Shown: positions 4,495-26,664 of the stretch, piece by piece
Layout of the letters: every line of letters starts with the position of its first letter
Numbering within the stretch: the stretch's first letter is position 1
NCBI GenBank assembly: GCA_963702005.1
Contig: OY969696.1
Span: forward strand, 128,001 to 192,000
DNA length: 64,000 nt
DNA from: Candidatus Aminicenantes bacterium
GTDB taxonomy: Bacteria; Acidobacteriota; Aminicenantia; Aminicenantales; JAFGBC01
Reading direction: 5' to 3'
Position numbers and translations under genes: made by a program
Notes under the pieces: model-generated
Database searches by the model: none
What the model was told of the DNA's origin: nothing
What the model saw: only the letters and a program-made list of their open reading frames with translations

Positions 4495-5157
4495 ATGAAA
4501 AAGAAGCTCTCCTCTTTCGATTCTGAGAAGGATGTTTGGTATTACCAGCCTAAGATTTACATAGATACGAAGAGCCTGACCTATTCTCTTTACGACGAGT
4601 CCCCCGAATTCCGGTCATTCCTGTCCCGCGACCTGTCGAGGAAACTTGTCGACGGGCTAGATTCTCTTCTTGAGAACGGGAATGACAAGAATAAGGGCAA
4701 ACTGAAGAAGAGAAACGGCCAGAACGGCTCGGACATGGGCGCGCTACTGAAGACGAACGGGAAGCTGAAGAAGCCGGTAATCAGCTTCTTTGCCGACAAG
4801 GCTAAGGTCCTTAAGGAAGAGATAGATAAAATCAACCAAGACGCGGAGGAGCGGAAAAGACTTCACAGAGAAACGAAGGATGAAATATGTGCCGATTCGA
4901 AAGAGATCAGAAGGCTGCTGCAGGAAATCTCGCTATATTCGCCGGGAACGAAGCACTCGATTGACTTGCGACGAATAGAGCTTGAACGGGAGATGCTCGG
5001 CCTACGGAAGGAATCGAGAATTGCGGGCCTTTCATTATGGAAGGATTCCGTAATGCTTCGCCACGAGCTGCGCGAAATCATTTTCGAGTATCAGGCGCTG
5101 AAAAGGATGGCGGAGCTGGTCGAGAACGGAGGCGGCAAGAATGGCGTTTCAGGGTGA
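4495..5157 (+). CDS. Hypothetical coiled-coil protein (element backbone)
   Basis: 220-aa ORF with a charged helical C-terminal half. Confidence 0.7.
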   Translation: MKKKLSSFDSEKDVWYYQPKIYIDTKSLTYSLYDESPEFRSFLSRDLSRKLVDGLDSLLENGNDKNKGKLKKRNGQNGSDMGALLKTNGKLKKPVISFFADKAKVLKEEIDKINQDAEERKRLHRETKDEICADSKEIRRLLQEISLYSPGTKHSIDLRRIELEREMLGLRKESRIAGLSLWKDSVMLRHELREIIFEYQALKRMAELVENGGGKNGVSG

Positions 5158-5215
5158 GTCCGCCGACCACGAGAATGTAACTTCATAAGCCTAGAAATAA
5201 GCAAACCTGGAAATT

Positions 5216-5590
5216 TCAAAAAGCCCTGTTCGGCTGGGCCAAGGTAACGAGCGAGTTCAGGGCTTCCTCTTTCTGATTGTGCATGAAAACGAAGCCGTAA
5301 TAGACGTAGATCGCATCGCCCCTGTTCTCCGTCCTCAGCGTCGCGGACTTAATACTCGAAAGTTCTTCCTTTCTGAGATAAAGGCTGATGTTCCTGAGGA
5401 GCTTCGAAGCATTAAGTATCTCCAGCCCCACGGCCCTTTTCATGTCGGCATCGAAGTCTATGATGAAATCTCCTATCTCGACGCTTCCCTTGGCCTTTTC
5501 GCTGCCCCTGTGCAGGAGCAGGATGTCATCTTCCACGTCATACGAGAATTGCGTTTCGGCTTTCATTTCCACCACATCCTTTTCTGCCAT
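5216..5590 (-). CDS. DUF2283-family protein (putative antitoxin)
   Basis: YDVEDDILLL...GSVEIGDFIIDFD...AVGLEILNASK. Confidence 0.75.
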   Translation of the reverse strand: MAEKDVVEMKAETQFSYDVEDDILLLHRGSEKAKGSVEIGDFIIDFDADMKRAVGLEILNASKLLRNISLYLRKEELSSIKSATLRTENRGDAIYVYYGFVFMHNQKEEALNSLVTLAQPNRAF

Positions 5591-5880
5591 TTGTTTACTA
5601 TTTCATAGGCAGTCTTGACCTTTATCCTTTCGTTCAGAGTGATTATGAGGCCGAGCGTCCTGGCCCTGCTCAGCCTGAACCATAATTTATACTTGAATTC
5701 CGAGGGATTTAAAGATTCCTGCTCCGTCGCCCTGATCAGGTTTTTCGGGTTCATCAGGTTCTGCCTGATGACTTCTTCTTTTATGCCCCTGTAGGCGCGG
5801 TCCTGCGCTACATGGGACGATATGATTATTTTGTCCTCTCCAAAGCTTTTAAGCCACTCCCTCAGATTCTGGCGCTTCAT
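5563..5880 (-). CDS. DUF4258/RelE-like putative toxin paired with DUF2283
   Basis: IIISSHVAQDRAYRGI...IKVKTAY; overlaps the DUF2283 gene; start could be 5913. Confidence 0.55.
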   Translation of the reverse strand: MKRQNLREWLKSFGEDKIIISSHVAQDRAYRGIKEEVIRQNLMNPKNLIRATEQESLNPSEFKYKLWFRLSRARTLGLIITLNERIKVKTAYEIVNKWQKRMWWK

Positions 5881-6025
5881 GCGAACCGATATGCCTATTT
5901 GGCCTGAGTTCATAAATGCTTTTTGACGAACCCCTGCGGCTCATCTACTCTCTGCATTCCATCATCCGCATATTCCGCCTTCTGCATCGGCCAGCCTCTT
6001 CATTAAGCTTTCCGTCGTTTCGTTA

Positions 6026-8059: not shown

Positions 8060-8100
8060 TCGGCTAACATGCTCATAATCAACTTTTTTATTTCTCTTTG

Positions 8101-9606
8101 CTAGCCTTCTTTATTTTTTCTTTCTTTTTCAATTTGAAATTGAACATCACAAAATGCCTTGCCAATTTCTCTGACTAAGTTCTGCATTGTAATGATTGTA
8201 ATCAATCTCTCCATTGTAGGTTTGGTCGCTAAAAGACAGGTCGTTATCTGATGCAAAGATATGACAGCATTCTTGGCAGGATCAGCCAAACCATAATTGC
8301 TGGGTCCTGCTAAAAGAACTTCTTGTAATGAATTGTTCTGAATTAATCCAAGTCTGAATTTAAGACTTTTTGAACCAGCATGTACATTAATACAAGCCAT
8401 TTTATAAAAAGGTCTCCACGTGTCCATTTTTATTGATTCTTCTATTTCTTTGAAATTCCTATCCCTCAAGATATTGCTGGGAACCCATCCGTAATCGCTA
8501 CAGAAATCTCTGCCATATTTAGCGCAGACGACATCTCTGCCTCTTTTCAATTCTTGAAATTGATTTCTTGTTAATGGCTTAAATCCTAATCTCTTGCAGT
8601 GTTTTTGGTATTCTTTCGCTTCCTTATAATTCTCGATAATTGTATGAGTTAGATATCTCTCTGCAATACTTCTCCCATGTTTACTTAGAAAAAATGAAAT
8701 AACTGCCAGCTCATGCAAACTTCTCCAACGAGCGAATGCTCCATCTGCCAAACCGCTCTTAAGGAGTGTCATTATCTCAAAGAATATTTGACACCCGCGA
8801 GCATGTATTCTGGTAAGAGCCTCAAAAAGAAAATCCTGATTTCTGGCTGCTTCTTCTCTATGTTTGTTATTGAATTCTTCTCCTGATTCTAAGGCCATCA
8901 CATAAAACATTTCTAACAAATCAACTGGCTTTTGCCATCTCTTCATCAATCGGTTTTCAAATCCTTCTTGATAACTTCTTCTCTCTGTTAACATTTTTGA
9001 ACTTGTCTTCTTAAGTTCGTTCAATAATACTTCCGCAGATTTGGGCAACGTTTTCGACATTATGTTATTTATCATTTTTGATATTTTCTTAGAATCAGGA
9101 ATTTCTTTGCCGGCACTAATTATTGCTTCAAGAATCAACGTACAAAACCAATCGTCAGAATTTCCATTAGTTTTCCCTCTCTTGGTAATATCACTTTTTA
9201 AATTATCAACGGTTTTTTTACATGAAGAAATGTCCATTACCCCTTCCAATTCCGATAACAATTTGTAACAGTTCTCATCAACAATCTTTAATTTATTTCT
9301 AAAGGCTTGATAAAATTCAGAATTGACTGCCCCTTTATTTGAACCAGTCCTAATAGTCTGGTTACACCTATCAAAAATATCTTTAAACTCTTTATTTATC
9401 TTTTTTAAGTCACTCTTTGATAAATCAAATTCTTTTATATTTTCTTCTGTAAGATTACGCTCAAAATTGCTAATGATATTGCTGTAAAAAAATCCTTCAA
9501 CAATGCTTACCGCTTCATTTTGAATTACCACTGATTTTGCGTATTTAGAGACCATCTCTTTAGATTGTTCAATCAGTTGCTCAAGTTTATCTAAAAATTC
9601 ATTCAT
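8101..9606 (-). CDS. DUF5677-like protein (predicted defence-associated)
   Basis: LLKSGLADGAFARWRSLHE, DYGW, YKMACINVHAG; AT-rich. Confidence 0.65.
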   Translation of the reverse strand: MNEFLDKLEQLIEQSKEMVSKYAKSVVIQNEAVSIVEGFFYSNIISNFERNLTEENIKEFDLSKSDLKKINKEFKDIFDRCNQTIRTGSNKGAVNSEFYQAFRNKLKIVDENCYKLLSELEGVMDISSCKKTVDNLKSDITKRGKTNGNSDDWFCTLILEAIISAGKEIPDSKKISKMINNIMSKTLPKSAEVLLNELKKTSSKMLTERRSYQEGFENRLMKRWQKPVDLLEMFYVMALESGEEFNNKHREEAARNQDFLFEALTRIHARGCQIFFEIMTLLKSGLADGAFARWRSLHELAVISFFLSKHGRSIAERYLTHTIIENYKEAKEYQKHCKRLGFKPLTRNQFQELKRGRDVVCAKYGRDFCSDYGWVPSNILRDRNFKEIEESIKMDTWRPFYKMACINVHAGSKSLKFRLGLIQNNSLQEVLLAGPSNYGLADPAKNAVISLHQITTCLLATKPTMERLITIITMQNLVREIGKAFCDVQFQIEKERKNKEG

Positions 9607-9772
9607 TTTTCCCTCATTAAGCTATCTGCTAATGAAACATAAAAGCTATTTCAAAAAGAATTCGCGTATTTCAACAATGCTGCTAATTTTGACGCATATC
9701 TTTTTGCTTCGCTGCGTAGAGCTAAAGTTATATTAAGCCTCTATCGAAAATTCTTTGTCGAAAATATTATTG

Positions 9773-10060
9773 TTATCTTGTAGAACGCTTTAAAATCTTT
9801 CCTTTCTCATTCATTACACCCACAGTGGTTCCTTCTGTTCTATCAAGAGCCTCGTTAAGAATATCATTTGGGACCCCAAGATATACCGGCTTTTTAAATC
9901 CCTGTAATTGCTTAATTCCTTCGGACAGTTTGTTTTTATTTATCTCAACTTCAACGGCGTATTTTGGAGTGTTTACGTCTGGACCTTCTGTGGGTTCATA
10001 TTTTGTTCCTCGTGCTTTGGCGATTTTTTCAGCGACCTTATCATGTTTGCTTTGAGACAT
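9773..10060 (-). CDS. Small hypothetical protein, possible minimal PD-(D/E)xK fold
   Basis: GPDVNTPKYAVEVE; AGGAGG RBS upstream. Confidence 0.6.
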   Translation of the reverse strand: MSQSKHDKVAEKIAKARGTKYEPTEGPDVNTPKYAVEVEINKNKLSEGIKQLQGFKKPVYLGVPNDILNEALDRTEGTTVGVMNEKGKILKRSTR

Positions 10061-10231
10061 TGGTAACCTCCTTGCTTCTTATTATATAACGCGTTCAAGA
10101 ATTATCAAAAGCATATTCCGCATCAAATTATAGAATCTGGACTGGCCAAAGAAAAAGGAGCTAGACTAATAGAGTCTGTGTTATTGACTACAGAAACAGA
10201 AAACAAGCAATAAAATATGTTAAAAATAAAC

Positions 10232-11044
10232 TCAATATGTTCTTTGATCAGTAATTTCTTGTTCGGCCTCGATCCCATTTGAGGCCAAAAAAACTTTTAA
10301 TTCTTCGTATCGTTCTCTAATTGATTTAACTCTTATTATTTTAGGACTGAAAAATAAACTCAATTCGCTAATTTTATCATTTCTTGTTTCCGACTTGTAA
10401 AATAGCGGTGCAAGCAATCGTAATAAGTTTGATGCGGTATCCAGATTTTGTTCCTCTTGTCTTGAAAAAGCATTCACAGCGAATCTCAAAGAACCAATTA
10501 CTATATCAACGAGCGATCCAAAATGGGATTGTCCAATAGCACTATAGTGATAACCTATAATATGATTTAATCTTAAGGTTCTCGAATAGGGTAGTCCCCT
10601 AACGCCGGTAGATAGTTTTTCCCTCAGATGGGCATCAATTTGCTTGTCGCTGAAGCGATCAATTAGCATCAATCCATGAGAGCAGAATCTTTTCAATAGA
10701 CAATCAAAATGATATGCAACTCTATTTATTTCGTTTTTTCTAGCATCCTCGGGGCTCGTGGCTATTTTATGGTGAATCAGAGAAACTAGAATAACACATC
10801 CAGTCTCCACTGCCTTCTGAACTATTCTTTGTTTAAGCTCAACAAATTCTTCATGTTTAAGTTTATTGGGGCGTGGATTGAACTTGAGTAGAAAATCATT
10901 GGGAATACATTTATCCAGTCGAAGTTTGTATATTTCGTCAGATAGAGTCTTTGCCTTCGCTGAGTCAATAACGACTCCGCCATATATAAAGAAAACATTT
11001 TCTGCTGGTCTTAGATTTGTCTCATCAGAATACATTAGATACAT
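10232..11044 (-). CDS. DUF3800-family protein
   Basis: N-terminal YLMYSDET, FIYGGVVI, C-terminal SLVDIVIG. Confidence 0.65.
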   Translation of the reverse strand: MYLMYSDETNLRPAENVFFIYGGVVIDSAKAKTLSDEIYKLRLDKCIPNDFLLKFNPRPNKLKHEEFVELKQRIVQKAVETGCVILVSLIHHKIATSPEDARKNEINRVAYHFDCLLKRFCSHGLMLIDRFSDKQIDAHLREKLSTGVRGLPYSRTLRLNHIIGYHYSAIGQSHFGSLVDIVIGSLRFAVNAFSRQEEQNLDTASNLLRLLAPLFYKSETRNDKISELSLFFSPKIIRVKSIRERYEELKVFLASNGIEAEQEITDQRTY

Positions 11045-11293
11045 GAGCTTTTTCCCCCTTCCATTTTAATTCTACTGCAAAACACGAATTCACAATAGAT
11101 ATAGCTAATCTGCATATTCCACAACCTTAAAAGCAAGCCTTCTAAACTTTTCAGCGGTCTAAAAAGAAACCCTAGTAAATTTTCCTTATCTGCATGATCC
11201 GCAAATCTCCCTAAATGCTTTTCAAATTTATCAGCTTTGGCTATCACAAAAAAGAATAATAACGATCAGAATTGACTTCGAAAAATGCCAAGT

Positions 11294-11875
11294 CTAAGCA
11301 TACGGATCATGCTTAGCGGATTCTATCCAGTCCGACTCTGATGAGGGATCAATCGTTGATAGTTCATTTAGAATAGATTCGACGGTCAAAATGGCATCAG
11401 CGCTATGATTTTCCGTAACCCAGTCTTCCTCTTCAACGATTTCAGATACTTTTTTCCTTCTGGTTTTATAATGAACGAGCCTGTCCCTAAGCTTGAAAAG
11501 TTCTTTTAGCCTTTCATATGACTGTCCATCGGTGTCTAGCGCTTTTCCTGTTATCAATTTTGGAATCAGGATCCACTTGCTCACAGGACTCAGTTTATCC
11601 AGATGGTTATCGAAATAGCTTCTTGAAAATCTTTCAATCGCATAATTGTTTATGAATGCTTCAAGAGTGAGAGCGCTAAAAATGACTGATACCATTGCGG
11701 AGCGTTGAATCGCGGCATTTTTCTCACATACGTAGTCGACATCACGGTCATCCTTCACTATCCTGGCTTCGCGCTCCGAAACAAGCCTCTCCACGTGCTT
11801 GTGATGTCTATATGCAATCGCGAAGAATGTCTTGTGCCTGGTAAAAACTACTTCATGATCATGCTCTTTGTCCAC
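11294..11875 (-). CDS. HEPN-like domain protein
   Basis: IFSALTLEAFIN and LRDRLVHYK (Rx4H). Confidence 0.65.
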   Translation of the reverse strand: MDKEHDHEVVFTRHKTFFAIAYRHHKHVERLVSEREARIVKDDRDVDYVCEKNAAIQRSAMVSVIFSALTLEAFINNYAIERFSRSYFDNHLDKLSPVSKWILIPKLITGKALDTDGQSYERLKELFKLRDRLVHYKTRRKKVSEIVEEEDWVTENHSADAILTVESILNELSTIDPSSESDWIESAKHDPYA

Positions 11876-12080
11876 GAAAAACTCCTTAGCTCAAGGGATA
11901 AAGTCATTTTATTCGATTAAACGCATATTCTGCAATTTTCCTCAGAAGCCTTTCTAAGCATATCGCCAATTCCAATCCGATTTGTCAAATCGGCCTTTTT
12001 GTTTATATTTTTCAAATATTTTATAGGCATAATCAGCAATCCGTATAAACAGCCTTTAAAAAAGCATTATCAATACCCTC

Positions 12081-13213: not shown

Positions 13214-13280
13214 GTTTAAACATTTGTTTAAACATTTTTGATCCCTCTTGTAGCATATAAGTTTAAACACCCGTTTAAAC
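13214..13280. repeat. Four GTTTAAAC palindromes in two 12-bp-spaced pairs; candidate origin or operator
   Basis: GTTTAAAC at 13214, 13226, 13261 and 13273 in an AT-rich gap just after cdc6. Confidence 0.7.
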
Positions 13281-13482: not shown

Positions 13483-14184
13483 ATGATAAAACTCAGACAC
13501 GTCATTCGTAAGGCAAAGCTGGAACTTGAATACCAGTTTATGAAAGTCAGCGGAAAAACGAACCTCGGGTATCCTTACTCGGAAGTATATGCTGATTTCA
13601 AGCTGCGCTATCGCAGCCATTCGAGCCGTTTCTGGGACAACATAGCAAAAGACATGGAAAAAGAGATAATCGTCCATGGATTGGATGATTTCCGCAAGCT
13701 TCATTTTATCCAATATTTCAGCATCAATGCCGCCAACGCGAATAACGTGGGTGCCTTCGCGGACATAATGAAATACACGGGATGGGAACTGAACAAGAGA
13801 ATCACGATTTGCGAGATAGGCGGCGGCTATGGGGGTCTTGCCTACATGTTCCTGAAACTCATGCCGAATGCTCATTATATCCTCGTAGATATACCACAAA
13901 CACTTATTCTAGCCCATCGTTTTTTGAATGGGTTGGGTATTGCCGACAGGTGCGAGTTTCTAGTGCCGGATGAGATAAGGAACGTCAAACCTGACCTTTG
14001 GATAAACGTAGACAGCTTCCAGGAGCTTACCTATCACATAATTGATGATTATTTCAGTTACATCAAGAACAATCCGGGATATCTCTACATGAAGGAGCTG
14101 GAAACCAACCACAATTCTGTCGACGGCGTACATTCTGAATATCGACGACTACCCGTTCAAGAGGAACATGCGGATAATCGATAG
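13483..14184 (+). CDS. Putative sugar O-methyltransferase (NanM-like, class I SAM-dependent)
   Basis: ICEIGGGYGGLA, ILVDIP, DLWINVDSFQEL. Confidence 0.75.
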   Translation: MIKLRHVIRKAKLELEYQFMKVSGKTNLGYPYSEVYADFKLRYRSHSSRFWDNIAKDMEKEIIVHGLDDFRKLHFIQYFSINAANANNVGAFADIMKYTGWELNKRITICEIGGGYGGLAYMFLKLMPNAHYILVDIPQTLILAHRFLNGLGIADRCEFLVPDEIRNVKPDLWINVDSFQELTYHIIDDYFSYIKNNPGYLYMKELETNHNSVDGVHSEYRRLPVQEEHADNR

Positions 14185-14418
14185 AAAGGTCCTGCCGCAA
14201 AGGATACGATTTGACAACTGTAGCGGGATATGGGAGCCGTATGTCGTGATGTTCATAAAGATAAAGAAGGAGACTGGTGTATGAAACTCAACTCGGACGA
14301 TTGGTTCATAATAATAATGGTGACGTTGCTGGTGATAGGCATCGCATCCGACCTCATACTGAAGCTACATAAAATATAGCCGTTCAATCGCCGCCGTGTG
14401 AGGCGTTAAAAAGAAAAT

Positions 14419-14638
14419 ATGAAAATCGGGTTATATAACTTGGAGCCGAAGATCGTCAATTATGTGTTATGTTCTCATCGGATACTGGTCCAACAAAAGA
14501 GGAAGACATGATGAGAATGATGCAACTGAGATCCCTCGGCATCGACTCTTTCGTGATGCCCTATAACAAGCAGGATTATTACTACCGAGTATTTGCCAGG
14601 TGGGTCAACTTCAAGGTGATTTTTGAATCAATACCTTA
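14419..14638 (+). pseudogene. Internally deleted remnant of a phage-type radical-SAM-like gene
   Basis: MKIGLYNLEPKIVN joined directly to MCYVLIGYWS...LRSLGIDSFVMPYNK...FARWVN, i.e. N- and C-termini only. Confidence 0.5.
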
Positions 14639-14993: not shown

Positions 14994-15093
14994 AATTGAT
15001 CTTGTGTGGACAGAATCGATATTAACATGTCGTAATATTTGGACTATCATAATACTAACTTGATAGGGAAAGTGAATTCTCTTTTGCAACAAA

Positions 15094-16542: not shown

Positions 16543-16658
16543 GATTATTTCTCGTATCGACAATAACAACGTTTTTTCAGAATGCATCCTTCAATGCTCA
16601 GTTGTATAAACATCCATTTAAACATAATAATTTATATCCCCCTTCCGATTTTTCTATA

Positions 16659-16853
16659 ATGGTCCGCATCCAGGCGTTCAAGGGAAGCAACAAGTTAAAA
16701 AACGGCATGAAGGGCAAAGAATATCAGCGTCACTTCATCATAATCCCCCAGGCCCTTGTGACGGCGCTGGGCTGGAAGAAGGGCGATGAGATGGACTTCA
16801 TGATAGAAAGGGATAAAATATACTTGAAGAAACAGAAGGCTTTATCGATTTAA
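16659..16853 (+). CDS. AbrB/MazE-type swapped-hairpin DNA-binding protein
   Basis: FIIIPQALVTALGWKKGDEMDFMIE. Confidence 0.75.
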   Translation: MVRIQAFKGSNKLKNGMKGKEYQRHFIIIPQALVTALGWKKGDEMDFMIERDKIYLKKQKALSI

Positions 16854-16890: not shown

Positions 16891-19092
16891 ATGATCATGC
16901 CTGATGACCTCAAAGATCAGGAATTTAGAAAAAAGCTACGAGAAGCCCACGACTTTGCCCTACAAGAAAAAGAAAAAGCTAAGCGGCAAATCGAGCACAT
17001 AATTGTCGACTTAGATCCCATTGAACTGCTATCGCATATTGCTTTTATCTCGCAATATATTCCAGAGGGCAATCCTGAAATCAATCAAAATATAAGGGAA
17101 TATCCATCTCTACAATTCTTATCTGGCCTTTATCTGAAATTTCGTGAACCAGGGACTAGGCATCCCGAGAACAAAGAAATCGAAATGCTCTTGGAAACTG
17201 TCGAGAGTTATTTCACCTTTTTCATGCAAGACTTAATCCTTCAGAGTTTCAAAAAGGATACGGTATCAGATACCGACGGGTTAATTCTCCAGGCAAGACT
17301 GCAGAGAATTGTCCGTCAAGTTAATGCGACAATATATCCTTTCCAACTCGATATACTTATTCGTGATTTGTTCTCCCATTTTGATGATTACTTTTTAAGA
17401 ACAGTAGGCTTTAGGGCGTCAAAAGCGTTGGAGTTTGGCAGGAAGATCATTAATAGGTACGAGAGACTTATAAACAAGCGATATGAAGAATCGAGATTAG
17501 CTTATATTAATGCAAAAGAAGAATTGAGAGATCCGGTAAAAGGCCCCGCCATCAAGGAACTGATGGGAAAAAACATATCCGAACAGGATTATCTTAACTC
17601 ATATTCCGCTTTCTTGTTATTTTCAAATACAAAAGATCTTTTCGTTTTTAACCCTGACGAGGCATGCAGGGAAGAAGGCATTTCCGACATTGCCGAATTT
17701 AAGAGCTATTTGACTACTCTAAGCTGTAGATTCGGAGACAATCAGACTTTCGACAATTTCCTAGATAATAATGTCATATCCACAAGACCATTTATCTGGG
17801 CTGATGAAGGAAGATATTTTGCGCCCATTTCCCAAGATTTGCTTTACAACCTTCCCCGTTTTCTCGAATTAATCCTGGAGCCGGAAAAGGCTTCCCAGTC
17901 TAGCACCTGGCAGAAGTATCAGTCAAAACGAGCGCGTTTCGTTGAGGATCGGATATATGAATATTTTTCCCGGCTCTTTCCAAAGGACAGAATCTACCGG
18001 AACGTCAAATATGTTTTTCAAGGCAAAGAATGCGAAGCTGACATAATTATTTTATATGATAATAAAACCTTCTTAATAGAATCTAAATCCGGATCATTTA
18101 CTGAACAAGCCCAGAGGGGAGGAATTGACAGTCTAAAAAAAGACCTTAAGAAACTAGTCGAAGAGGCTCACCAACAAGGGAAACGAACGATAGACTATAT
18201 CAAATCAGGTGAAGTTGCCGTTTTTACGGATATGTCCGGGAATAAAGCGCTAGAATTGAACCGCAATTCGAACAAGATTTTCATTGTCAGCGTTACTCTC
18301 GAGCCTTTGATGAGTTTTTCAGCAAGTCTAAAAAATCTCGGGTCGTTGGGCCTATTTGTAGATAACGAATACCCGTGGTCAGTTCATCTCAATGAACTAG
18401 ACATCGTCACCAAACATCTTCCATCGCCTACTATCTTCATCCATTATTTGGAAAATCGCCTGCAAGCTATAGATGAGAACATATTTCATGCTTTTGATGA
18501 GCTCTCTTTCTTGGGTTGGTATTTAAAGCAGGGCAATTTCATCGTTCCGCGCACTAAAGATGACAAAAAGCCAAATATAGTAACGCTCGCTTCTGATTGG
18601 GTGGCCGCGTTTGACGATCATTATTTATTCGGCAAAGCGAGTCCGCAGCTCATAATTGAAGAGGACCTCCTCAAAGTCGTTCGTATCCTAGAATATATTA
18701 ATCCAATAGGCTATTCTGATATCTCAAGTGCACTCCTTGACTTTGATCATGATGCAAGAAAGCTAATATTTGGTAAAATAAATGAACTAATAGAATTATC
18801 TAAGAACGATCATAAGCCGCACGATTTCTCCGTTCTCTACAAAGAAGTATTGGATACTGGCCTCACTTTTATGACCATTCTAGAAAGGCATCGATTAAGA
18901 GAACGCCTTGGTTCTTACTGCACCATAAAGAAATACCAGATGAAAGCAAGAAGGTGGATTGGCATTGGGAGAGACGTGTCAGATGAACGTTGGTACGTCA
19001 ATGAGTTCGCTTTTCTAGATAACCCCTGGGAACATAATTCCAAAATGGATAAACTGTTAAGAGTTTTCCCCATGAGAGATAAGGGTAAATGA
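16891..19092 (+). CDS. Large protein with a NERD/PD-(D/E)xK nuclease-like domain
   Basis: FVEDRI...YRNVKY...EADIIILYDNKTFLIESKSG...AHQQG. Confidence 0.65.
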   Translation: MIMPDDLKDQEFRKKLREAHDFALQEKEKAKRQIEHIIVDLDPIELLSHIAFISQYIPEGNPEINQNIREYPSLQFLSGLYLKFREPGTRHPENKEIEMLLETVESYFTFFMQDLILQSFKKDTVSDTDGLILQARLQRIVRQVNATIYPFQLDILIRDLFSHFDDYFLRTVGFRASKALEFGRKIINRYERLINKRYEESRLAYINAKEELRDPVKGPAIKELMGKNISEQDYLNSYSAFLLFSNTKDLFVFNPDEACREEGISDIAEFKSYLTTLSCRFGDNQTFDNFLDNNVISTRPFIWADEGRYFAPISQDLLYNLPRFLELILEPEKASQSSTWQKYQSKRARFVEDRIYEYFSRLFPKDRIYRNVKYVFQGKECEADIIILYDNKTFLIESKSGSFTEQAQRGGIDSLKKDLKKLVEEAHQQGKRTIDYIKSGEVAVFTDMSGNKALELNRNSNKIFIVSVTLEPLMSFSASLKNLGSLGLFVDNEYPWSVHLNELDIVTKHLPSPTIFIHYLENRLQAIDENIFHAFDELSFLGWYLKQGNFIVPRTKDDKKPNIVTLASDWVAAFDDHYLFGKASPQLIIEEDLLKVVRILEYINPIGYSDISSALLDFDHDARKLIFGKINELIELSKNDHKPHDFSVLYKEVLDTGLTFMTILERHRLRERLGSYCTIKKYQMKARRWIGIGRDVSDERWYVNEFAFLDNPWEHNSKMDKLLRVFPMRDKGK

Positions 19093-19273
19093 TGTTCTTA
19101 TCTTCTTAATCCGCACCCCCCTTCCGAAACCCTTTTCTTTTCTCCTCTTTACTTCCTCTGATGAATCATCAATCAGCGGAGAACGAGCTTCCAAAATGGG
19201 TCAAGCTCGTAAACAGGGCGCTGCGGGGGGATCTGACCCTCGAAGACATCGGCCTCCCCCGGAAGGCGTCAGA

Positions 19274-19495
19274 ATGAATGAAGTCCACATCCTTGACATC
19301 AAGCTTATTGGCGCGGGGATAGTTTTCATTGCCTTCGCCTTGATTGTCGTTCTGGGCTTTGCTCTTGGGCCTTATCTTGAAGTCGCTTCGCCTAAGGATG
19401 GAAAGCTACTTATCTTAGCTTCTGCAATTTCCCTCGGAGTGATGATTGCTACTGCCTGTTTCATAATCTACTCAATGTTTAAACACAAAGAATAA
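19274..19495 (+). CDS. Small protein with two transmembrane segments
   Basis: Two hydrophobic segments; ATG 19274 overlaps the stop of a short upstream ORF. Confidence 0.5.
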   Translation: MNEVHILDIKLIGAGIVFIAFALIVVLGFALGPYLEVASPKDGKLLILASAISLGVMIATACFIIYSMFKHKE

Positions 19496-19712: not shown

Positions 19713-19952
19713 GTGCCCATTATGATAGCTGATCATTCCAGAACAATAATCAAAATGAGGGACGCCGAAATCCTCGACGATTACGTAGTCAGGGTACTCC
19801 GGTCAGTAAATGTTCCTGTTTGCATAAATACAATTGCCGTTTTAACTGGCCTTGCTCCTCATAGGGTGTGCAAGGTATTGAACAGACTGGAGCAGGATAA
19901 AAGGATAAGGAAAACAACAAATATCCGCCATGCCTATTGGCAGTTTATATGA
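19713..19952 (+). CDS. Small winged-helix protein
   Basis: INTIAVLTGLAPHRVCKVLNRLEQDKRI. Confidence 0.5.
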   Translation: MPIMIADHSRTIIKMRDAEILDDYVVRVLRSVNVPVCINTIAVLTGLAPHRVCKVLNRLEQDKRIRKTTNIRHAYWQFI

Positions 19953-21477: not shown

Positions 21478-21909
21478 CTAACAAATAAAGCTACCTTTTA
21501 AAGGCGCCTTCACTCCAATATTTTTTATAGAGACTGTATCGTCATGAGGGAAGGAATCCTTACATTCATCATTGCAAATTGGTTTAGTATGGTAGATTAA
21601 GCAGCATTCGACTTTTTGCCTTCTTGAAGTCCCAAGTTCACACTTGGCTACTTTTAAAAGCGTGTAATTTGTGCAATTTTTTTCCCAACATGACCACTTC
21701 TCGTGTCCTTCGATTCTTGTTCGGACTTTGTCGGCTTCGCCAATATAAAGTAGCTTATAAGATGATGCATCCCATTTATTAGGTTCGGTAGACCTCTTCC
21801 CACAGATAATCATATAAATTCCTTCTCCATCTGGGACATCAGATGGTATTGCGTCTTTTTTTATTTCCCATACGCCATCCCAATTTAAGGTTACGCTTAT
21901 TGTTTCCAT
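21478..21909 (-). CDS. GIY-YIG nuclease-like protein
   Basis: GIYMII...LLYIGEADKVRTRIEGH...VECCLI. Confidence 0.7.
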   Translation of the reverse strand: METISVTLNWDGVWEIKKDAIPSDVPDGEGIYMIICGKRSTEPNKWDASSYKLLYIGEADKVRTRIEGHEKWSCWEKNCTNYTLLKVAKCELGTSRRQKVECCLIYHTKPICNDECKDSFPHDDTVSIKNIGVKAPLKGSFIC

Positions 21910-22178: not shown

Positions 22179-22637
22179 ATGAACCTGGAAGAGATGGAAC
22201 ATGAGAAGCAGGTCGAACGCCTGCGAACGGTCCTGAGGTCGGAGAAGGGCACGCTGCCGGGCTTCCTGGCTCTTTTCGCGCTGCGCCATCACGCGATAAT
22301 GGGCCACAAGCCGGAGCTTTCCCTCAGGCCGAGCCTGCGCTGGTATCTGGGCCAGCTCGCCAAGGAATACATCCGCCGCTATTACGCCGAGGCAAAGGAA
22401 GCGATGGAGAGTTTCGCGGCGATCGGCCTGGTGGAGGCCAGGGACGGAGAGCAGGAAGGCCAGAAGGACTTCGTCCTCAGGGAGGCGTTGGTCCCGGCGC
22501 TGCGCGAGGTCCTCGAAGAGGTCTTCGGCAAAGAGACGGTCGAGGACACGGTCGCCAAGGCGAAGTTCTACAAGGAGCCGGCCTACGGGCCGGAGCGCGG
22601 CCGTGCCGGCGCCAAGGCGGGGAGGTCGGAAGAATGA
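22179..22637 (+). CDS. Hypothetical protein (backbone)
   Basis: GGAGGTG RBS; ATGA overlap with the next gene. Confidence 0.65.
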   Translation: MNLEEMEHEKQVERLRTVLRSEKGTLPGFLALFALRHHAIMGHKPELSLRPSLRWYLGQLAKEYIRRYYAEAKEAMESFAAIGLVEARDGEQEGQKDFVLREALVPALREVLEEVFGKETVEDTVAKAKFYKEPAYGPERGRAGAKAGRSEE

Positions 22638-23065
22638 AAGGCGAAATCGAGAGAATCTGGAAGAACAAGACCGGCGACGGCCGGCTCTACAACGTGCTCC
22701 AGATAGGCGGAGAACGGTATTCCCTGTGGGAGGAGAACTACCTCGACAAGCTGCACGAGGGCCAGACGCTGGAATTCGACTTCAGTGAGGCGGGCGACTA
22801 CAAGAACATCTGCAAAATCTACGAGCCGGCGGGAACCGGGAAGCAGGCGGGCAAAGAGGAGCAGCCGCCGGAGACGGCAGGGAACGGCCAAAACCAGAAG
22901 GCGCGCCAGATCGTGAGGATGAGCTGCCTGCGCTCGGCCAGCCAGATCCTGGGCGGGTCGAGAATCCCGGCAGGCGAGCGCGCCGGCAAGACGATAGAAA
23001 TCGCGAAGAAGTTCGAGAAATACATCGGCGACGACAGCATCCCAGGACCCGGCGAGGACGACTGA
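22634..23065 (+). CDS. Hypothetical protein, possible OB-fold ssDNA-binding protein
   Basis: Beta-rich N-terminus, QIVRMSCLRSA helix, acidic tail. Confidence 0.5.
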   Translation: MKGEIERIWKNKTGDGRLYNVLQIGGERYSLWEENYLDKLHEGQTLEFDFSEAGDYKNICKIYEPAGTGKQAGKEEQPPETAGNGQNQKARQIVRMSCLRSASQILGGSRIPAGERAGKTIEIAKKFEKYIGDDSIPGPGEDD

Positions 23066-23112
23066 AAACAGGAGGGGGAATCCGGGCTGGTCAAGACCAT
23101 CCGGGCGGAAGC

Positions 23113-23436
23113 ATGCAGTCCAGACGGGATAGCGGTCAATCCGAATTCCTGAGAGCCCTCGGACGCTACCACAGACCGAGAACGGGCGAAACAATCATCA
23201 CGAGGCATGGAGAGGCGAAAATCTCGCTTATCCTGTCTTACGCGGGCGTCGTCGGAGAGATGGAGGCGTGCGGCATGTCCGGCAAAGACATCGAAAAATT
23301 CAAGGCGCGAGTCGAGCATTTCTTCGGCAACAAGAGGAGCAGGTATTTCGAGTGCGAGCTGGCTTATACGGACGGAGAAACGGAGCGCATCGACTGGAGC
23401 GAATACCTGGCGATGAAGAACGAGGGAAAAAGGTGA
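23113..23436 (+). CDS. Hypothetical protein
   Basis: 107-aa ORF in a co-directional run. Confidence 0.5.
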   Translation: MQSRRDSGQSEFLRALGRYHRPRTGETIITRHGEAKISLILSYAGVVGEMEACGMSGKDIEKFKARVEHFFGNKRSRYFECELAYTDGETERIDWSEYLAMKNEGKR

Positions 23437-23727
23437 TCTTACGGCGACGGAAAGAAGCGCGGTCCTGGGCGGGCAGGGGTTCAGCGTAAGAACCAAGAAG
23501 ATCTATCAGAGGGACCTGACCTCAGACTGCTGGTCCGTCCAGGTCTGGGGCCTCGGCTACTGCTCGGGCTTCGGGGATTACGGCCAGATGTGCGAGTTCC
23601 TGGCCACGGACGAATGCGGCGGGCAGGTGATACGCAAGCGCATTCTGTCCGGCGGCTTCCCGGTTTCCGGCCTCCCCGACGCCCCATCAGAGCGGCAAAA
23701 AGGATGATCCACAAAAAAGGGATGCTC

Positions 23728-23970
23728 ATGAAAGGGAAAATCTACGCGCTGGTAAAGAACTTCGCATGGACAAACCATGATGTCGAGTTATTTAGAACGG
23801 CCAAAGAGGCCGAACTGGCTTTCAAACGCTATACCGGCATCGCTTTCAGTAAGCAATACCTTTGCCAGGACGATGAGGAATACAACGAGAAGTTTTCCGA
23901 GACGAAAATCTATGAACTGGCTTTGCCGGATTTTCTTGCGTTCACCAAAGGCAAACCGAGGAGGCGATGA
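23728..23970 (+). CDS. Hypothetical protein, paralog of the N-terminal domain of the RadC fusion
   Basis: KIYALVKNF...EKFSETKIYELALPDFL versus KIFVLVKNF...EKFSETRIYGLELPPYL. Confidence 0.65.
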   Translation: MKGKIYALVKNFAWTNHDVELFRTAKEAELAFKRYTGIAFSKQYLCQDDEEYNEKFSETKIYELALPDFLAFTKGKPRRR

Positions 23971-24156
23971 ATCTGTACGAGAAATGTCCGCTGGAACCAA
24001 GAAGAAGGTCAAGGCGCGAGCTCAAGGACTCGCATTTCGACGGCTATAAATACAAGGGCTATCGGGTCAGGCGGGCGATTCTCCTGGGCAAATTCCCCGT
24101 CTCCGGGCTTCCGGAGGCCGGATCGGGCGCCGGGCCGTAGGGAGGCTTTCGTTTCC

Positions 24157-24864
24157 ATGAAAAAGTCCAAAATCTTCGTCCTGGTGAAGAATTTCGAGGG
24201 CGTCAACCACGAGGCCGAGCTCTGCCCGAGCTTCGGGGAGGCCAGGAAGCGCTTCCGCCAATACACGGGCTTCGGCTACAACGACAAATACTGCGACCCC
24301 GAAAGCGACCGCTACGAAGAGAAGTTCTCGGAGACGCGGATATACGGGCTGGAGCTCCCTCCTTACCTGAGCGTCTCGCCGGGCCGGGGAAGAAGCCGGC
24401 GCCTGAAGGACTCGGGCTTCGACGGCTTCGAATACAAGGGCTACAGGGTCAAGACGAAGCTCGTGGTCGAGGGCCACAGCAAATACAAGCCGCTGAAGCT
24501 CGGAAGCTCCCATGAGGTCTACGCCGCCTTCCGCAGCCTTTCGGACAGCGACCGGGAGCGCTTCTACTCGGTCCTGCTCGACTGCAAGAACGCCGTCATC
24601 GGCGTCGACATGGTGAGCCAGGGCTCGGGCAACTCTGCGGCCGTCGTGCCCATGGAAGTGTTCAAGCCGGCCCTGCTCGCCTCGGCGGTGGCGGTCGTCT
24701 TCGTGCATTCCCACCCTTCGGGCGATCCGGAACCGTCGTTCCCAGACATCGCGCTCACCCGCGACCTCAAGCAGGCCGGCGAATTGCTCGGGGTCAAGGT
24801 CCTGGACCACGTCATCATCGGCAGGGAAAAGTTCTACAGCTTTGCGGACAAGGGTGGCATATGA
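24157..24864 (+). CDS. radC: RadC-like JAB-domain protein with an extra N-terminal domain
   Basis: RERFYSVLLD, HSHPSGDPEPS..D, VLDHVIIG. Confidence 0.85.
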   Translation: MKKSKIFVLVKNFEGVNHEAELCPSFGEARKRFRQYTGFGYNDKYCDPESDRYEEKFSETRIYGLELPPYLSVSPGRGRSRRLKDSGFDGFEYKGYRVKTKLVVEGHSKYKPLKLGSSHEVYAAFRSLSDSDRERFYSVLLDCKNAVIGVDMVSQGSGNSAAVVPMEVFKPALLASAVAVVFVHSHPSGDPEPSFPDIALTRDLKQAGELLGVKVLDHVIIGREKFYSFADKGGI

Positions 24865-25082
24865 AGAAACCCGGCGAGCGCATGCACGAAGTGAGGGTCC
24901 GGCTCGATCGGCTGCGCCGCTACCGAGGCTGCTCGGACCTGGTCGAGACCTACTGCTGCTCGGCGACTCCCTGCTATTACGTCGACTTTCCGGCGCTCGG
25001 CTACGGCGGCTACTTCCAGACGGCCGATGTCGAAATCAGGAGGCGGGAGCATCGAAGCGATAAAGAAGGAATTGTCGGTTGA
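24861..25082 (+). CDS. Hypothetical protein
   Basis: ATGA-coupled to radC. Confidence 0.45.
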   Translation: MKKPGERMHEVRVRLDRLRRYRGCSDLVETYCCSATPCYYVDFPALGYGGYFQTADVEIRRREHRSDKEGIVG

Positions 25083-25089
25083 AGAAACG

Positions 25090-25374
25090 ATGAAGCGCTA
25101 TCCCAGGCTGACCGCGCACGTGATAGCCGAGTCTCTCGGCTACGCCACGCCTTCGCGGGCGGCAGCCATCGTCAGGGACGCAAAAGAGCGCCGGCCGAAT
25201 TATTGCGAATGGATCGACGCCTGCTACGGCTGCGACCCGCTGCCGGCGGTGAAGAACGCAATAAGGAACAGGCACAATCACAGCGGCTTCATGGCCGAAT
25301 ACAAGCTCGCGCTGGCGTTGGTGCGCCGCGCAATCGACACGGGCGACGAGCCGGTCTTCGCGAGCTGGTTTTAA
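25090..25374 (+). CDS. Hypothetical protein
   Basis: MKRYPRLTAHVIAESLGY...; start uncertain (ORF track gives 25027). Confidence 0.55.
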   Translation: MKRYPRLTAHVIAESLGYATPSRAAAIVRDAKERRPNYCEWIDACYGCDPLPAVKNAIRNRHNHSGFMAEYKLALALVRRAIDTGDEPVFASWF

Positions 25375-25393
25375 GCGGGGTTGAGGTGGGAAA

Positions 25394-25684
25394 GTGACGA
25401 AATTCGATACGGACGGGGAGAATCTTTACATCGACGGCAAGAAGGTCCTGCGCGGTTGGGAGTCGTTCTCGGGCTGGTACTGGTTCGCTACCGAGAAAGT
25501 CCGGAAGCAGTTGAGCGATTTCGGCAACGGAAAGGGAGTCCCCGATACCATCTATTTCGGGCTGGTCCAGGGCTTCGAGGAGGAATGGGGCTATTTCAGC
25601 CAAGCAGAAATCGAGAGCCTGAAGCCTAAAACTTGGGAGATCCCGAAGGAGAATCTGCCTTATGCGGGAAGGAGAAGACGATAG
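25394..25684 (+). CDS. DUF2958-like protein
   Basis: WYWFATE...YFGLVQGFEEEWGYFSQAEI. Confidence 0.65.
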   Translation: MTKFDTDGENLYIDGKKVLRGWESFSGWYWFATEKVRKQLSDFGNGKGVPDTIYFGLVQGFEEEWGYFSQAEIESLKPKTWEIPKENLPYAGRRRR

Positions 25685-25687
25685 CAG

Positions 25688-26122
25688 ATGAAATCCACTA
25701 AATTCATGTCGGCGGAAGAAAAGGGGAAAGTGCTTAAAGACTGGCAGCGCTTCATAGCAAGTGATTTCAGCAGGGCATATTTCACCCATTCTCTCTATAA
25801 CCACCTGATTCAACATTGCTCTTTCATCGCGCACTACAACGAGCAGGGTTTTTATGGTTCTTATTTCGAAGATCCGGGGAAGACGCTGAAATTCCTGAAA
25901 CAGTTTGACGGGGATTATGGCTGCAAAAGCGTCGAGTATGGGTCAGGATACTGGCTAACGAACGAGGAGTATAGGGACATTAACTCTGCCATGATAAATG
26001 CCCTCCAGCCGCATAAGAAAACGATATATTCAGGACTGAAGCAAAAAACAAGGGAGACAAAATTACGGCAGATGGAGAAATTGAGAATTGAAATAGAGGA
26101 GTTAGATCGACGAGGTGACTGA
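25688..26122 (+). CDS. Hypothetical protein
   Basis: LYNHLIQHCSFIAHYNEQGFY; coupled run. Confidence 0.6.
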   Translation: MKSTKFMSAEEKGKVLKDWQRFIASDFSRAYFTHSLYNHLIQHCSFIAHYNEQGFYGSYFEDPGKTLKFLKQFDGDYGCKSVEYGSGYWLTNEEYRDINSAMINALQPHKKTIYSGLKQKTRETKLRQMEKLRIEIEELDRRGD

Positions 26123-26321
26123 AATGGGAACGCACACCGTCCATACGGATTGCGTTAAATGCAGGGGAAAAGATTCTTTAATCTATACGTTTGACACGAG
26201 AAATCCAATTTCGGGCGAGGCCTTCTGCCTTAACTGCGGCCGTTATTACAGCACTATTGAGAAGAAGCTGGCCAAAAAAGAATTGACAGAATTGAGAAAA
26301 GAATACGGATGGGGTGACTGA
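26115..26321 (+). CDS. Small zinc-finger protein
   Basis: CVKC...CLNC; overlaps both neighbours. Confidence 0.55.
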   Translation: MTEMGTHTVHTDCVKCRGKDSLIYTFDTRNPISGEAFCLNCGRYYSTIEKKLAKKELTELRKEYGWGD

Positions 26322-26664
26322 GACGAGCTATTACCTTACCGTCGCCGACCAGGGCCTTAAAGCCAAAAAGGACATCTCTGACGAACTCAAAAAGCTATAC
26401 GATGAAAACAAGGTTTATCTCTATTGGCACTGGGAAAACGGTTTCGTTGGCTTAGACGATGGATATTTCAGATGGGACGAGGATTTCTTCCAGGACCTGC
26501 TTGCGCTAAAATCCATTGGCGTCAGGGGAGACATGACGGCTCAAGGCGAAGAAGGCGAGCACTATAAGTATGTCATAAATAACAGAGCCGTGAAGGAATA
26601 TTACGGCACAGTCAGGTTTCCAAAAAAGCCCGCCAGGGTAATCAAAGGCAATATGGACCTATAG
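26314..26664 (+). CDS. Hypothetical protein
   Basis: Coupled GTG start; 116 aa. Confidence 0.55.
   Translation: MTETSYYLTVADQGLKAKKDISDELKKLYDENKVYLYWHWENGFVGLDDGYFRWDEDFFQDLLALKSIGVRGDMTAQGEEGEHYKYVINNRAVKEYYGTVRFPKKPARVIKGNMDL

Follow-up and report, generated by a model that had tools for sequence, protein, structure and literature searches.

Introduction

Orc1/Cdc6 proteins count as hallmark factors of DNA replication in archaea and eukaryotes, where their usual client is MCM, and in bacteria the actinomycete integrative and conjugative elements (AICE) carry int, rep and one FtsK-like Tra motor. Here, we describe a stretch of 64,000 nucleotides from Candidatus Aminicenantes bacterium (assembly GCA_963702005.1, contig OY969696.1; C1:128001-192000 of the source genome, hereafter the window), which contains an island of ~24.5 kb (~1172-25684) encoding an Orc1/Cdc6 protein, an integrase and a HerA-like ATPase. 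With moderate confidence, we favour the reading that this island is one of two resident cryptic integrative elements in bacteria, with a backbone of archaeal (DPANN-like) ancestry. The element represents a widespread but rare bacterial family that has an archaeal-type Cdc6-integrase core, a hairpin-HerA-nuclease module and defence cargo.

Like the island, AICE have one initiator of replication and one motor of the FtsK/HerA superfamily besides an integrase, and no type IV secretion system. However, the window element relies on an initiator of the Orc1/Cdc6 type, and its motor bears a nuclease-like domain and lacks membrane segments. Haloarchaeal plasmids and viruses also have Orc1/Cdc6 as the replicon's own initiator, but their similarity to the window Cdc6 is distant. 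Thaumarchaeal integrated elements carry Cdc6/Orc1, which is presumed to recruit the replisome (PMC6563490, in the parts considered here). According to the same parts of that paper, archaeal cryptic elements and those resembling integrative and conjugative elements share with the window a tyrosine integrase, Orc1/Cdc6 as the only recognizable replication gene, variable cargo including restriction-modification (R-M) genes and helicases, and a lack of capsid and conjugation genes. In contrast to them, the window element resides in an MCM-less bacterium, additionally encodes a hairpin-HerA-nuclease module, an SSB/PriB-like protein and RadC, and yielded no att sites.

The main text of PMC10853773 describes mobile capture neighbourhoods that combine Orc/Cdc6 with a HerA/FtsK ATPase, a winged helix-turn-helix (wHTH) and a restriction endonuclease (REase)-fold domain; the window shows the same coupling, with wHTH and REase-fold domains that are putative. 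Unlike the proteins described there, the window Cdc6 has no inactive REase insert between the AAA+ core and the wHTH. Window-type Cdc6 is moreover linked to a Zn-ribbon integrase, the word 'integrase' having 0 occurrences in that main text, and persists without HerA. We found no paper on an element with canonical Orc1/Cdc6 and an integrase in bacteria, PMC10853773 being represented by its main text, and none linking 'Cdc6' with 'Aminicenantes'. Integrated elements bearing Cdc6 are known from archaea; unusual here is the bacterial, MCM-less host.

Two island copies in one bacterial genome

The source genome is a single contig of 4,309,361 bases (completeness 94%, contamination 2%) with a mean GC content of 60.4%, compared with values varying from 34 to 58% over positions 1-40 kb of the window, where the island lies. 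It contains a 16S-tRNA-tRNA-23S operon of bacterial type (bacterial small-subunit rRNA (SSU), 1579.9 bits) and a full-length DnaA (233 bits). By its single contig, rRNA operon, DnaA and GC content, the source organism is a bacterium.

When 45 window proteins were searched against the whole genome by tblastn, a second island copy was found 3 Mb away (loc2, C1:3109236-3134406), which is colinear with the window island over 15 proteins of 42-85% identity. In blastn, the two copies share blocks of 65-82% identity with unrelated cargo between them. Amino acid identity is 72% for the small recombinase, 79% for the 220-aa hairpin protein, 75.5% for HerA, 59% for Cdc6, 63% for the NERD protein and 73% for the 99-aa protein next to it. 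The integrases are 42% identical and lie in opposite orientation. Further to the right, identities amount to 63% (ORF152), 74% (ORF143), 56% (ORF107), 69% (RadC), 84.5% (ORF115) and 85% (ORF96). This right arm is colinear with loc2 (46-85% identity) and also with the related loci L127, L128, L140, L153 and L165 (L-numbers denote related loci throughout). The recurrence of the same order at loc2 and in dozens of unrelated contigs speaks against a gene set assembled by chance.

The extent of the island follows from homology to loc2 by blastn and alignment. On the left, the homology begins at ~1172, some 70 nt before the 205-aa recombinase gene, and on the right it runs as far as the ORF96 stop (25684). 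A previous reading made from the sequence only had placed the element at 4495-26664; the conserved part thus starts farther left and its last conserved gene ends before that right border. Most gene assignments of the sequence-only reading were borne out by profile searches, namely Orc1/Cdc6, the integrase with its HSRAT/LGWxxGSxM signature, the HerA-like ATPase (HerA/DUF87), an AbrB-like protein of the AbrB/MazE type, DUF2283 (Pfam, 8.9e-6) and the flanking kinase-TPR genes (39988-43767 and 44441-46975). The proposed DUF4258 protein at 5563-5913 had no Pfam match, either at E<=0.01 or at E<=0.05, which leaves that assignment unconfirmed. For the outer-membrane barrel put forward in the same reading, an Atlas look-up of the protein at 3033-4196 returned no informative match.

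Seven backbone genes were compared by pairwise NG86, several of the comparisons having dS >1. The resulting dN/dS values were 0.04 for the small recombinase, 0.11 for the hairpin protein, 0.13 for HerA, 0.16 for both ORF96 and ORF115, 0.19 for cdc6 (at dS 0.41) and 0.23 for ORF143. As judged from these substitution ratios (0.04-0.23), all backbone genes tested are under purifying selection.

Cdc6 and candidate regulatory DNA

The window Orc1/Cdc6 scored 186.2 bits against TIGR02928 (cut-off 181.3) and matched Cdc6_lid at 2.7e-16. In a whole-genome search with TIGR02928, the two Cdc6 copies reached 185.6 and 181.7 bits, both above the cut-off. Positions 5-329 of the family profile align without an insert to residues 4-347 of S. 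solfataricus Orc1-1 (2qby_A, 1e-51), and the profile also aligns with Aeropyrum ORC1 and others. Residues G55, G58-T62, D133-E134 and R228 are invariant in 18 sequences; we take G55 and G58-T62 to be Walker A, D133-E134 to be Walker B and R228 to be the sensor arginine. The Cdc6_C domain scored 19 bits against a Pfam cut-off of 25.1. Because the genome has no MCM, we file the protein in this sequence family and do not claim the canonical mechanism for it.

The ~130 nt upstream of cdc6 are near-invariant among the window, L095, L097 and L098 (alignment A7). Within this region, L097 contains an exact GTTTAAAC and the window a degenerate copy at the same place. Directly downstream of the window cdc6 follow four GTTTAAAC boxes, in pairs spaced 12 nt, which form the genome's sole cluster of at least three boxes within 150 nt; the whole window contains 5 matches compared to 0.69 expected. 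AbrB-like homologues lie downstream of cdc6 in many loci, and in related loci GTTTAAAC pairs with the same 12-nt spacing precede the AbrB-like gene at a fixed offset of ~45 and 57 nt. Of the 26 AbrB-like genes, 15 have one or more exact boxes within 200 nt and 8 have two. For cdc6 genes, a box within 150 nt upstream was present in 14/56. The background was 0.097 boxes per kb. We read GTTTAAAC as a putative common operator, probably bound by the AbrB-like protein, through which cdc6 would be coupled to the switch of the element. The boxes could also be a candidate origin motif.

The 3' end of cdc6 (13042-13099) is duplicated ~1.8 kb downstream (14914-14993, repeat D2, 78% identity), flanking methyltransferase-like cargo, and loc2 has a similar cdc6 3'-end remnant at C1:3125466-3125521. 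The duplication suggests insertion at, or recombination within, the end of cdc6.

Integrase and small recombinase

The integrase match to PF00589 (Phage_integrase) covers profile positions 3-169 of 172, and its translation contains HLFRHSRATYL, LGWVQGSGM and CSICGK...CQRC, in line with the Zn-ribbon enzyme proposed from the sequence. We take HLFRHSRAT to represent the HxxR box and RVYVHL, also present, the C-terminal tyrosine region. Against XerA_Arch the protein reached 4.6e-39 but only 134.6 bits, compared to an equivalog cut-off of 220, and is therefore a relative of XerA rather than XerA itself. The C-terminal CxxC...CxxC ribbon is found in 35/37 rows of the integrase family set. A small HTH protein next to the window integrase (19713-19952) co-occurs with integrases of this type in L127 and L156. 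The main text of PMC8371274, a review of archaeal tyrosine recombinases, contains none of the words 'zinc', 'ribbon' and 'DPANN'.

In a Micrarchaeota metagenome-assembled genome (MAG; L033:2803-4072), a Zn-ribbon integrase with 45% identity directly adjoins a tRNA-Leu gene. Other tRNA-Leu genes lie close to the element in L022 and just beyond the right side of loc2.

The small recombinase at the left end is 80% identical to its homologue in L108, where the gene adjoins that of the hairpin protein. It is flanked by conserved DNA, with TTTGCATA upstream and TATGCAAA downstream forming an inverted motif (alignment A5 of window 1172-1950, L007 ~4120-4900 and L108 ~350-1150). The motif was seen in this alignment only, as the repeat tool found no inverted repeats around the gene. 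A split integrase of the SSV type, with the small recombinase as C half and ORF96 as N half, was considered and rejected: the 205-aa protein spans the catalytic domain in full, its gene lies between conserved flanks of its own and occupies the same place in L108, and ORF96 has no integrase similarity.

HerA, hairpin and right-arm proteins

The best solved relative of the window HerA is HerA 4d2i (6.8e-8). Its C-terminal third contains a winged-helix-like stretch and a motif of the PD-(D/E)xK type, in which E573, H574, D605, E618, E620 and K623 (E-H...D...ExE.K) are invariant in 7 sequences of 36-75% identity to the window protein. Each of four C-terminal pieces (4/4) gave matches to REase-fold families in Pfam, all below cut-off (Hjc 0.003, CoiA_nuc 0.018, MTES_1575 0.02, AHJR-like 0.09-0.18); one piece also matched a PadR-type wHTH at 0.092, likewise below cut-off. 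A PHROGs terminase family was matched at 5.4e-8, at the P-loop level only. The nearest Atlas clusters are bacterial, with Planctomycetota the commonest, followed by archaeal ones (Methanobacteriota, Parvarchaeota, Micrarchaeota).

The hairpin gene stands directly upstream of HerA in 16/40 sources. AlphaFold predicts for its product a disordered N half and an antiparallel coiled coil of helices 93-145 and 154-212 (pLDDT >90), and no match was obtained in Pfam, NCBIfam or PADLOC. A nuclease was ruled out, the predicted model being a coiled-coil hairpin. In the window, the hairpin-HerA operon is split by the DUF2283 gene and that of its 116-aa partner, a pair that L136 shares but that loc2 and most relatives lack.

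For ORF143, a five-stranded N-terminal barrel and two helices are predicted (pLDDT 72.6). The best Foldseek matches were RPA, LEF-3 and SSB, at E 4e-3 and weaker. VIA-align gave Z scores of 8.0-8.6, borderline for the tool, to SSB and PriB, with an rmsd of ~2 A over 65-70 aa, and its top ranks are almost all SSB- or PriB-type OB folds. The family has 128 relatives at E<=0.001 and no Pfam domain. RadC in the same arm matches Pfam at 4.3e-37; some relatives carry a Cas4-like PD-(D/E)XK nuclease (3e-28) in place of the RadC arm. The 143-aa protein between integrase and right arm (21478-21909) has a homologue of 80% identity at the same place in L134.

Among backbone-linked proteins, the transmembrane (TM) scan found membrane or hydrophobic segments only in the 99-aa ORF. 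No conjugation family was matched (VirB4 21.7 bits vs 643, TraD 18.8 vs 366), a PHROGs scan of 32 proteins gave no capsid, portal or tail family, several small ORFs remaining without a match, and PADLOC yielded no system-level match for the backbone.

Spread and linkage of the family

Out of 4554 candidates scored, 494 were Cdc6 relatives at E<=0.001. Among the 120 matches listed, those with an organism name comprise four Aminicenantes bacteria and one Helarchaeota (3.9-kb contig). In species-representative genomes, 146 pattern matches led to 101 that encode Cdc6 relatives, of which 80 were kept. The closest of these, with 44-67% identity, are bacterial MAGs by label (Eubacteriales, Pirellulales, Phycisphaerae, Armatimonadota, Ignavibacteria, Dehalococcoidales, Zixibacteria and one deltaproteobacterium), the phylum labels including Bacillota, Planctomycetota, Armatimonadota, Ignavibacteriota, Chloroflexota and Zixibacteria. 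One close match is labelled Aenigmatarchaeota; other archaea, mostly Micrarchaeota and Woesearchaeota, reach at most 39% identity. Among metagenome contigs, 84 relatives were found, of which 80 were kept. Altogether, the backbone occurs in bacterial MAGs of at least 7 phylum labels and on many metagenome contigs. The bacterial MAGs with the backbone measure 2.6-4.6 Mb, and 4/5 have a bacterial SSU on other contigs; contigs of 200-300 kb carry it as well.

In tblastn of window proteins against L009-L020, integrase was found in 9/12, HerA in 7/12 and ORF143 in 6/12 loci, and the order was always hairpin-HerA-Cdc6-integrase-ORF143. A compact arrangement of small recombinase, hairpin, HerA and Cdc6 occupies 7.2 kb in L108, and L140 holds hairpin-HerA-Cdc6-AbrB-integrase-ORF152-ORF143-ORF107-RadC-ORF73-ORF115 in 10.5 kb. 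In L128 and L165, ORF96 is the last gene, followed by unrelated DNA. A pan-map by ORF clustering of 40 sources, many of them incomplete and all found through Cdc6, counted Cdc6 in 38, HerA in 27, integrase in 18 and hairpin in 16, in constant order. The Cdc6-integrase-HerA synteny looked for in bacterial MAGs was thus found in several phyla.

To avoid the bias of loci found through Cdc6, a linkage test searched 201 genomes of the order of G205, a Planctomycetota genome (G-numbers denote other genomes), for Cdc6 and for the integrase independently. Cdc6 was found at 5 places in 4 genomes and the integrase (E<=1e-50) at 4 places in 3 genomes. All four integrase places (4/4) share a contig with Cdc6, at gaps of 394, 2994, 8731 and 10536 nt, and G205 carries two element copies. 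Within the host class, 2/201 genomes have Cdc6 (the source genome, plus one broken fragment) and 3/201 have the integrase (the source genome, plus two fragments). Cdc6 and integrase thus occur together and in few, scattered genomes, a pattern to be expected of a mobile element.

Ancestry

A tree of 79 Cdc6 rows was built by a quick maximum-likelihood search, with archaeal sampling biased by the search patterns. In it, both island copies, 11 bacterial rows and one row labelled Aenigmatarchaeota form a clade with an SH-aLRT (Shimodaira-Hasegawa-like approximate likelihood ratio test) support of 99. This bacterial clade is nested among archaeal Cdc6, its nearest neighbours being Aenigmatarchaeota, Halorussus and Nanohaloarchaea. 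In L024, an archaeal neighbour in the tree, an integrase lies 360 nt downstream of Cdc6.

The integrase family is larger, with 3293 relatives at E<=0.001 among 6460 candidates scored. Relatives with an organism name include Pseudomonadota, Aenigmarchaeota, Nitrososphaerales and Thermoplasmatales, and the integrase occurs in 35/151 genomes of the Micrarchaeota phylum (E<=1e-40). In a tree of 37 rows, integrases of the loc2 type group with those of bacterial MAGs (support 94), and 12 Micrarchaeota rows are their sister group (support 94). A separate lineage (support 100) unites the window integrase with L127 and L156. These separate lineages in the window and loc2 point to an integrase swap between resident copies. 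For both proteins, the nearest outgroups are found in DPANN archaea.

One contig in an Aenigmatarchaeota bin (G203 contig C4, 75.8 kb; L012, L205) carries a Cdc6 and an integrase, both of the bacterial clade, 44 kb apart. Its neighbouring genes (FeeM, RelA/SpoT, ABC transporter) are not diagnostic of archaea; the contig may be bacterial and wrongly binned, or it may come from a true archaeal carrier.

Discussion

That the island belongs to a family of mobile integrative elements is very probable: patchy spread, multiple copies per genome and deviant composition fit a mobile element. The unrecognized bacterial family with an archaeal-style backbone proposed by the sequence-only reading is upheld by the bacterial host, the second copy, the synteny in bacterial MAGs and the DPANN outgroups. 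That reading had also called the elements Cdc6-initiated. As Orc1/Cdc6 is carried by plasmids, viruses and integrated elements of archaea, Cdc6 may by analogy be the replication initiator of the element, which in a genome without MCM we hold tentatively and as somewhat short of probable.

In the scheme we propose, the Zn-ribbon XerA-like tyrosine recombinase would insert and excise the element, and Orc1/Cdc6 would bind DNA beside its own gene and start or license replication of the excised form. The SSB/PriB-like OB-fold protein and RadC or the Cas4-like nuclease may serve as replication helpers, with either a host enzyme or the element's HerA-type motor as helicase. The AbrB-like protein, sitting on GTTTAAAC boxes, would restrain cdc6 and itself. 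Hairpin protein and HerA-winged-helix-nuclease could form a DNA-pumping machine for segregation, transfer or the exclusion of rivals, and three hot spots would gather defence-type cargo to the benefit of the host. We give little credence to a bolder version, a domain-independent replication module in which Cdc6 without MCM would load the hairpin-HerA-type motor or recruit DnaB, together with the SSB/PriB-like protein, and thereby enable a DPANN-type element to move into at least 7 bacterial phyla.

Several observations weigh against an integrative element of archaeal ancestry. The Cdc6 and integrase trees come from quick searches and are rooted at the midpoint, labels of MAGs may be erroneous, and the count of loci with Cdc6 is circular because most of them were found through Cdc6. 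The one sequencing run compared with the assembly contained only 5% (0.05) of the sampled words. A PF00493 search of the source genome revealed no real MCM, the best match being partial (35.6 bits, model positions 19-137); as bacterial control genomes likewise exceed the cut-off, we regard these matches as other AAA+ proteins, which leaves Orc1/Cdc6 without its customary client. Some loci lack HerA although they extend far enough upstream (L010, L014), so HerA cannot be an obligatory helicase. No close relative was present in plasmid, phage and IMG/VR collections, where matches were either distant haloarchaeal ones (453 plasmid and 9 virus records, best 26-33% identity) or at the P-loop level. 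A repeat search in 1-40 kb found no att pair bracketing the whole element. In BLAST searches against the genome, the ORF96 end and left flank gave no left-hand copy of the repeat D1 (described below), and the tRNA-Leu adjoining loc2 gave no tRNA fragment. No terminal repeat of a circular form was detected in any fetched contig of at least 3 kb.

A last point of this kind is the prediction of immunity for mobile neighbourhoods of Orc/Cdc6, HerA/FtsK, wHTH and REase in the main text of PMC10853773 (Krishnan et al., 2024). Hairpin protein, HerA-winged-helix-nuclease and Cdc6 would then constitute a 'HerA/FtsK capture' defence, in which Cdc6 positions the complex and HerA pumps foreign DNA into the nuclease. 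The putative C-terminal wHTH of HerA and its PD-(D/E)xK motif, with invariant residues of catalytic type, would suit such a role, as would the position of HerA 0-8 genes upstream of cdc6 in 27/40 sources, a host without MCM and islands rich in DUF4062-TPR, NERD, R-M and GajB-like genes and, in L014, OLD, PRTase-CE and BsuBI R-M. However, in the systems set out in that main text Cdc6 invariably has the inactive REase insert, whereas the window Cdc6 of 347 aa is insert-free. Cdc6 also stays beside the integrase where HerA is missing (L010, L014, L015, L016, and G205 contig C27 with its gap of 394 nt), and in the Planctomycetota sample the integrase never occurs without Cdc6 (4/4 places). Moreover, the partner of HerA is a coiled-coil hairpin and not a nuclease, and no PADLOC system model fits. 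On balance, we consider the defence explanation, the main rival to our reading, rather unlikely. Cdc6 might instead be a DNA-binding AAA+ regulator or recombination helper, either a transcription switch comparable to Sulfolobus Orc1-2 or an ATPase that selects targets for the integrase, as MuB, TnsC or IstB do. The missing MCM and the tight linkage of Cdc6 and integrase, down to 0.4 kb, would agree with this, and precedents are an Orc1/Cdc6 paralogue acting as a damage-response regulator (PMC6061795, in the parts considered) and the placement of Tn7 and Mu transposase ATPase subunits in the Orc/Cdc6 family (main text of PMC10853773). Still, the full initiator architecture is kept and the cut-off of the initiator model passed, and the co-travelling SSB/PriB-like protein and nucleases are a better fit to DNA synthesis. 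We also know of no tyrosine recombinase that requires such an ATPase, and find this role improbable.

The assembly chimera that the sequence-only reading had named as its alternative, or a wholly archaeal contig, is very unlikely, to the point of being negligible. A mosaic GC content (34-63%), one Cdc6 relative labelled Helarchaeota and one labelled Aenigmatarchaeota, and an assembly that rests on contig sequence would speak for it. Set against this are the single 4.31 Mb contig bearing both the bacterial rRNA operon and DnaA, two copies 3 Mb apart, and the recurrence of the backbone in other bacterial MAGs (2.6-4.6 Mb, 4/5 with a bacterial SSU) and on contigs of 200-300 kb; furthermore, the Helarchaeota contig has only 3.9 kb, and the genes of the Aenigmatarchaeota-labelled contig are not diagnostic of archaea.

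If our favoured reading of a resident integrative element with an archaeal-type backbone holds, it would provide a tractable mobile family that crossed the divide between archaea and bacteria with genes for both replication and integration, and would raise the question of what Orc1 loads or recruits without MCM. With their three fixed cargo hot spots, the elements would be vehicles for defence genes. One misassembly screen uses TIGR02928 to mark archaeal chromosomes (bioRxiv 10.64898/2026.05.20.726742, in the parts considered), and Cdc6-type genes in bacterial bins need then not signal contamination.

Feature coordinates, cargo and flanks

Table 1 Features of the island and its right-hand neighbourhood, in window coordinates.
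Feature	Position	Strand	Evidence and remarks
Small tyrosine recombinase cassette	1172..1950	+	Gene 1247-1864, 205 aa; Phage_integrase 4.6e-27
Variable cargo: Peripla_BP_4 protein and 387-aa unknown	2107..4196	-	Pfam; neither in loc2 or L108
Hairpin protein, 220 aa	4495..5157	+	AlphaFold model; conserved upstream of HerA
DUF2283 protein (5216-5590) and 116-aa partner (5563-5913)	5216..5913	-	Inserted between hairpin and HerA genes
HerA/FtsK-type ATPase with winged helix and PD-(D/E)xK nuclease-like domain, 677 aa	6026..8059	+	DUF87 4.7e-13
Cargo hot spot 1 (HerA/Cdc6 interval): DUF5677 protein (8101-9606) and four small/unknown ORFs	8101..11875	-	
Conserved cdc6 upstream region, promoter/operator candidate	11950..12080	+	Alignment A7
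Canonical Orc1/Cdc6, 347 aa	12081..13124	+	TIGR02928; likely true start ATG at 12087
Four GTTTAAAC palindromes, two pairs	13214..13280	.	Operator or origin candidate
Cargo hot spot 2a: methyltransferase-like (13483-14184), cdc6 3'-end remnant (14914-14993), DUF4062-TPR (15094-16542)	13483..16542	+	
AbrB/MazE (SpoVT-AbrB) small DNA-binding-type protein	16602..16853	+	MazE_antitoxin 1.7e-5
NERD-domain protein (733 aa) and 99-aa two-TM protein	16891..19495	+	NERD 1.4e-4; TM scan
Small HTH protein, excisionase/regulator candidate	19713..19952	+	HTH_Crp_2 8.2e-4, below cut-off
XerA-like tyrosine integrase with C-terminal zinc ribbon, 412 aa	19934..21172	-	Phage_integrase 5e-23
143-aa unknown	21478..21909	-	Weak endonuclease-like matches only
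Right arm: ORF152, OB-fold ORF143 (22634-23065), ORF107, ORF126, RadC (24157-24864), ORF73, ORF115, ORF96 (25394-25684)	22179..25684	+	
Three copies of 76-nt repeat D1 and two integrase-less islets	25609..30857	+	Repeat search, Pfam, PADLOC

tRNA and Rfam scans of the window returned nothing, and the host-class relatives that lack the element are too distant for a comparison of empty sites. At the right end, the D1 repeat, which corresponds to the 3' end of ORF96, occurs at 25609-25684, 28894-28969 and 30782-30857 (100, 86 and 66% identity). It brackets two islets without an integrase, one with a PA-domain protein (27138-28598) and one with a UvrD/GajB-like helicase (28995-30737). The D1 copies look like stacked att-type scars at the right end of the element.

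Variable genes are found at three hot spots, between HerA and Cdc6, between Cdc6 and integrase, and after ORF96. At the first, the window has a DUF5677 protein (Pfam 2.2e-26; phrog_27456 1.1e-70), and the content differs between loci. Cargo hot spot 2a contains matches to methyltran_NanM (2.7e-21) and DUF4062 (6.1e-6). The module of the NERD and 99-aa proteins is common to the window, loc2, L131 and L165. In L014, the cargo comprises OLD, PRTase-CE and BsuBI R-M as well as a HATPase_c_3 protein.

A segment of 150 nt with a small minus-strand ORF is shared by the window (30880-31033), loc2 (C1:3133908-3134061) and L153 (12425-12580). It lies between ORF115 and ORF96 in loc2 and L153, and 5 kb farther right in the window, after the third D1; this permutation could be explained by a circular intermediate. 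At the left flank, window 1148-1170 contains a word of 15-21 nt that is found at many places in the genome and is possibly a small dispersed repeat.

Farther right, window 31077-34826 contains an R-M-like cluster, in which PADLOC recognizes an HhH-GPD 'type II nicking endonuclease' (2.1e-47); the other members are a HATPase_c_3 protein and a C5 cytosine methylase that matches DNA_methylase at 6.4e-58. The ~140 nt at 38402-38541, with a promoter-like start (TTGAC...TATAAT), are ~86% identical to C1:3142857-3142996, to the right of loc2, where tRNA-Leu(taa) is ~110 nt away; the window copy has no tRNA piece beside it. FeoB was read as two ORFs, the GTPase part at 57356-57934 and the membrane part at 55882-57378. 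Likewise, an insertion sequence with DDE_Tnp_1_4 at 62148-63485 is split into two ORFs.

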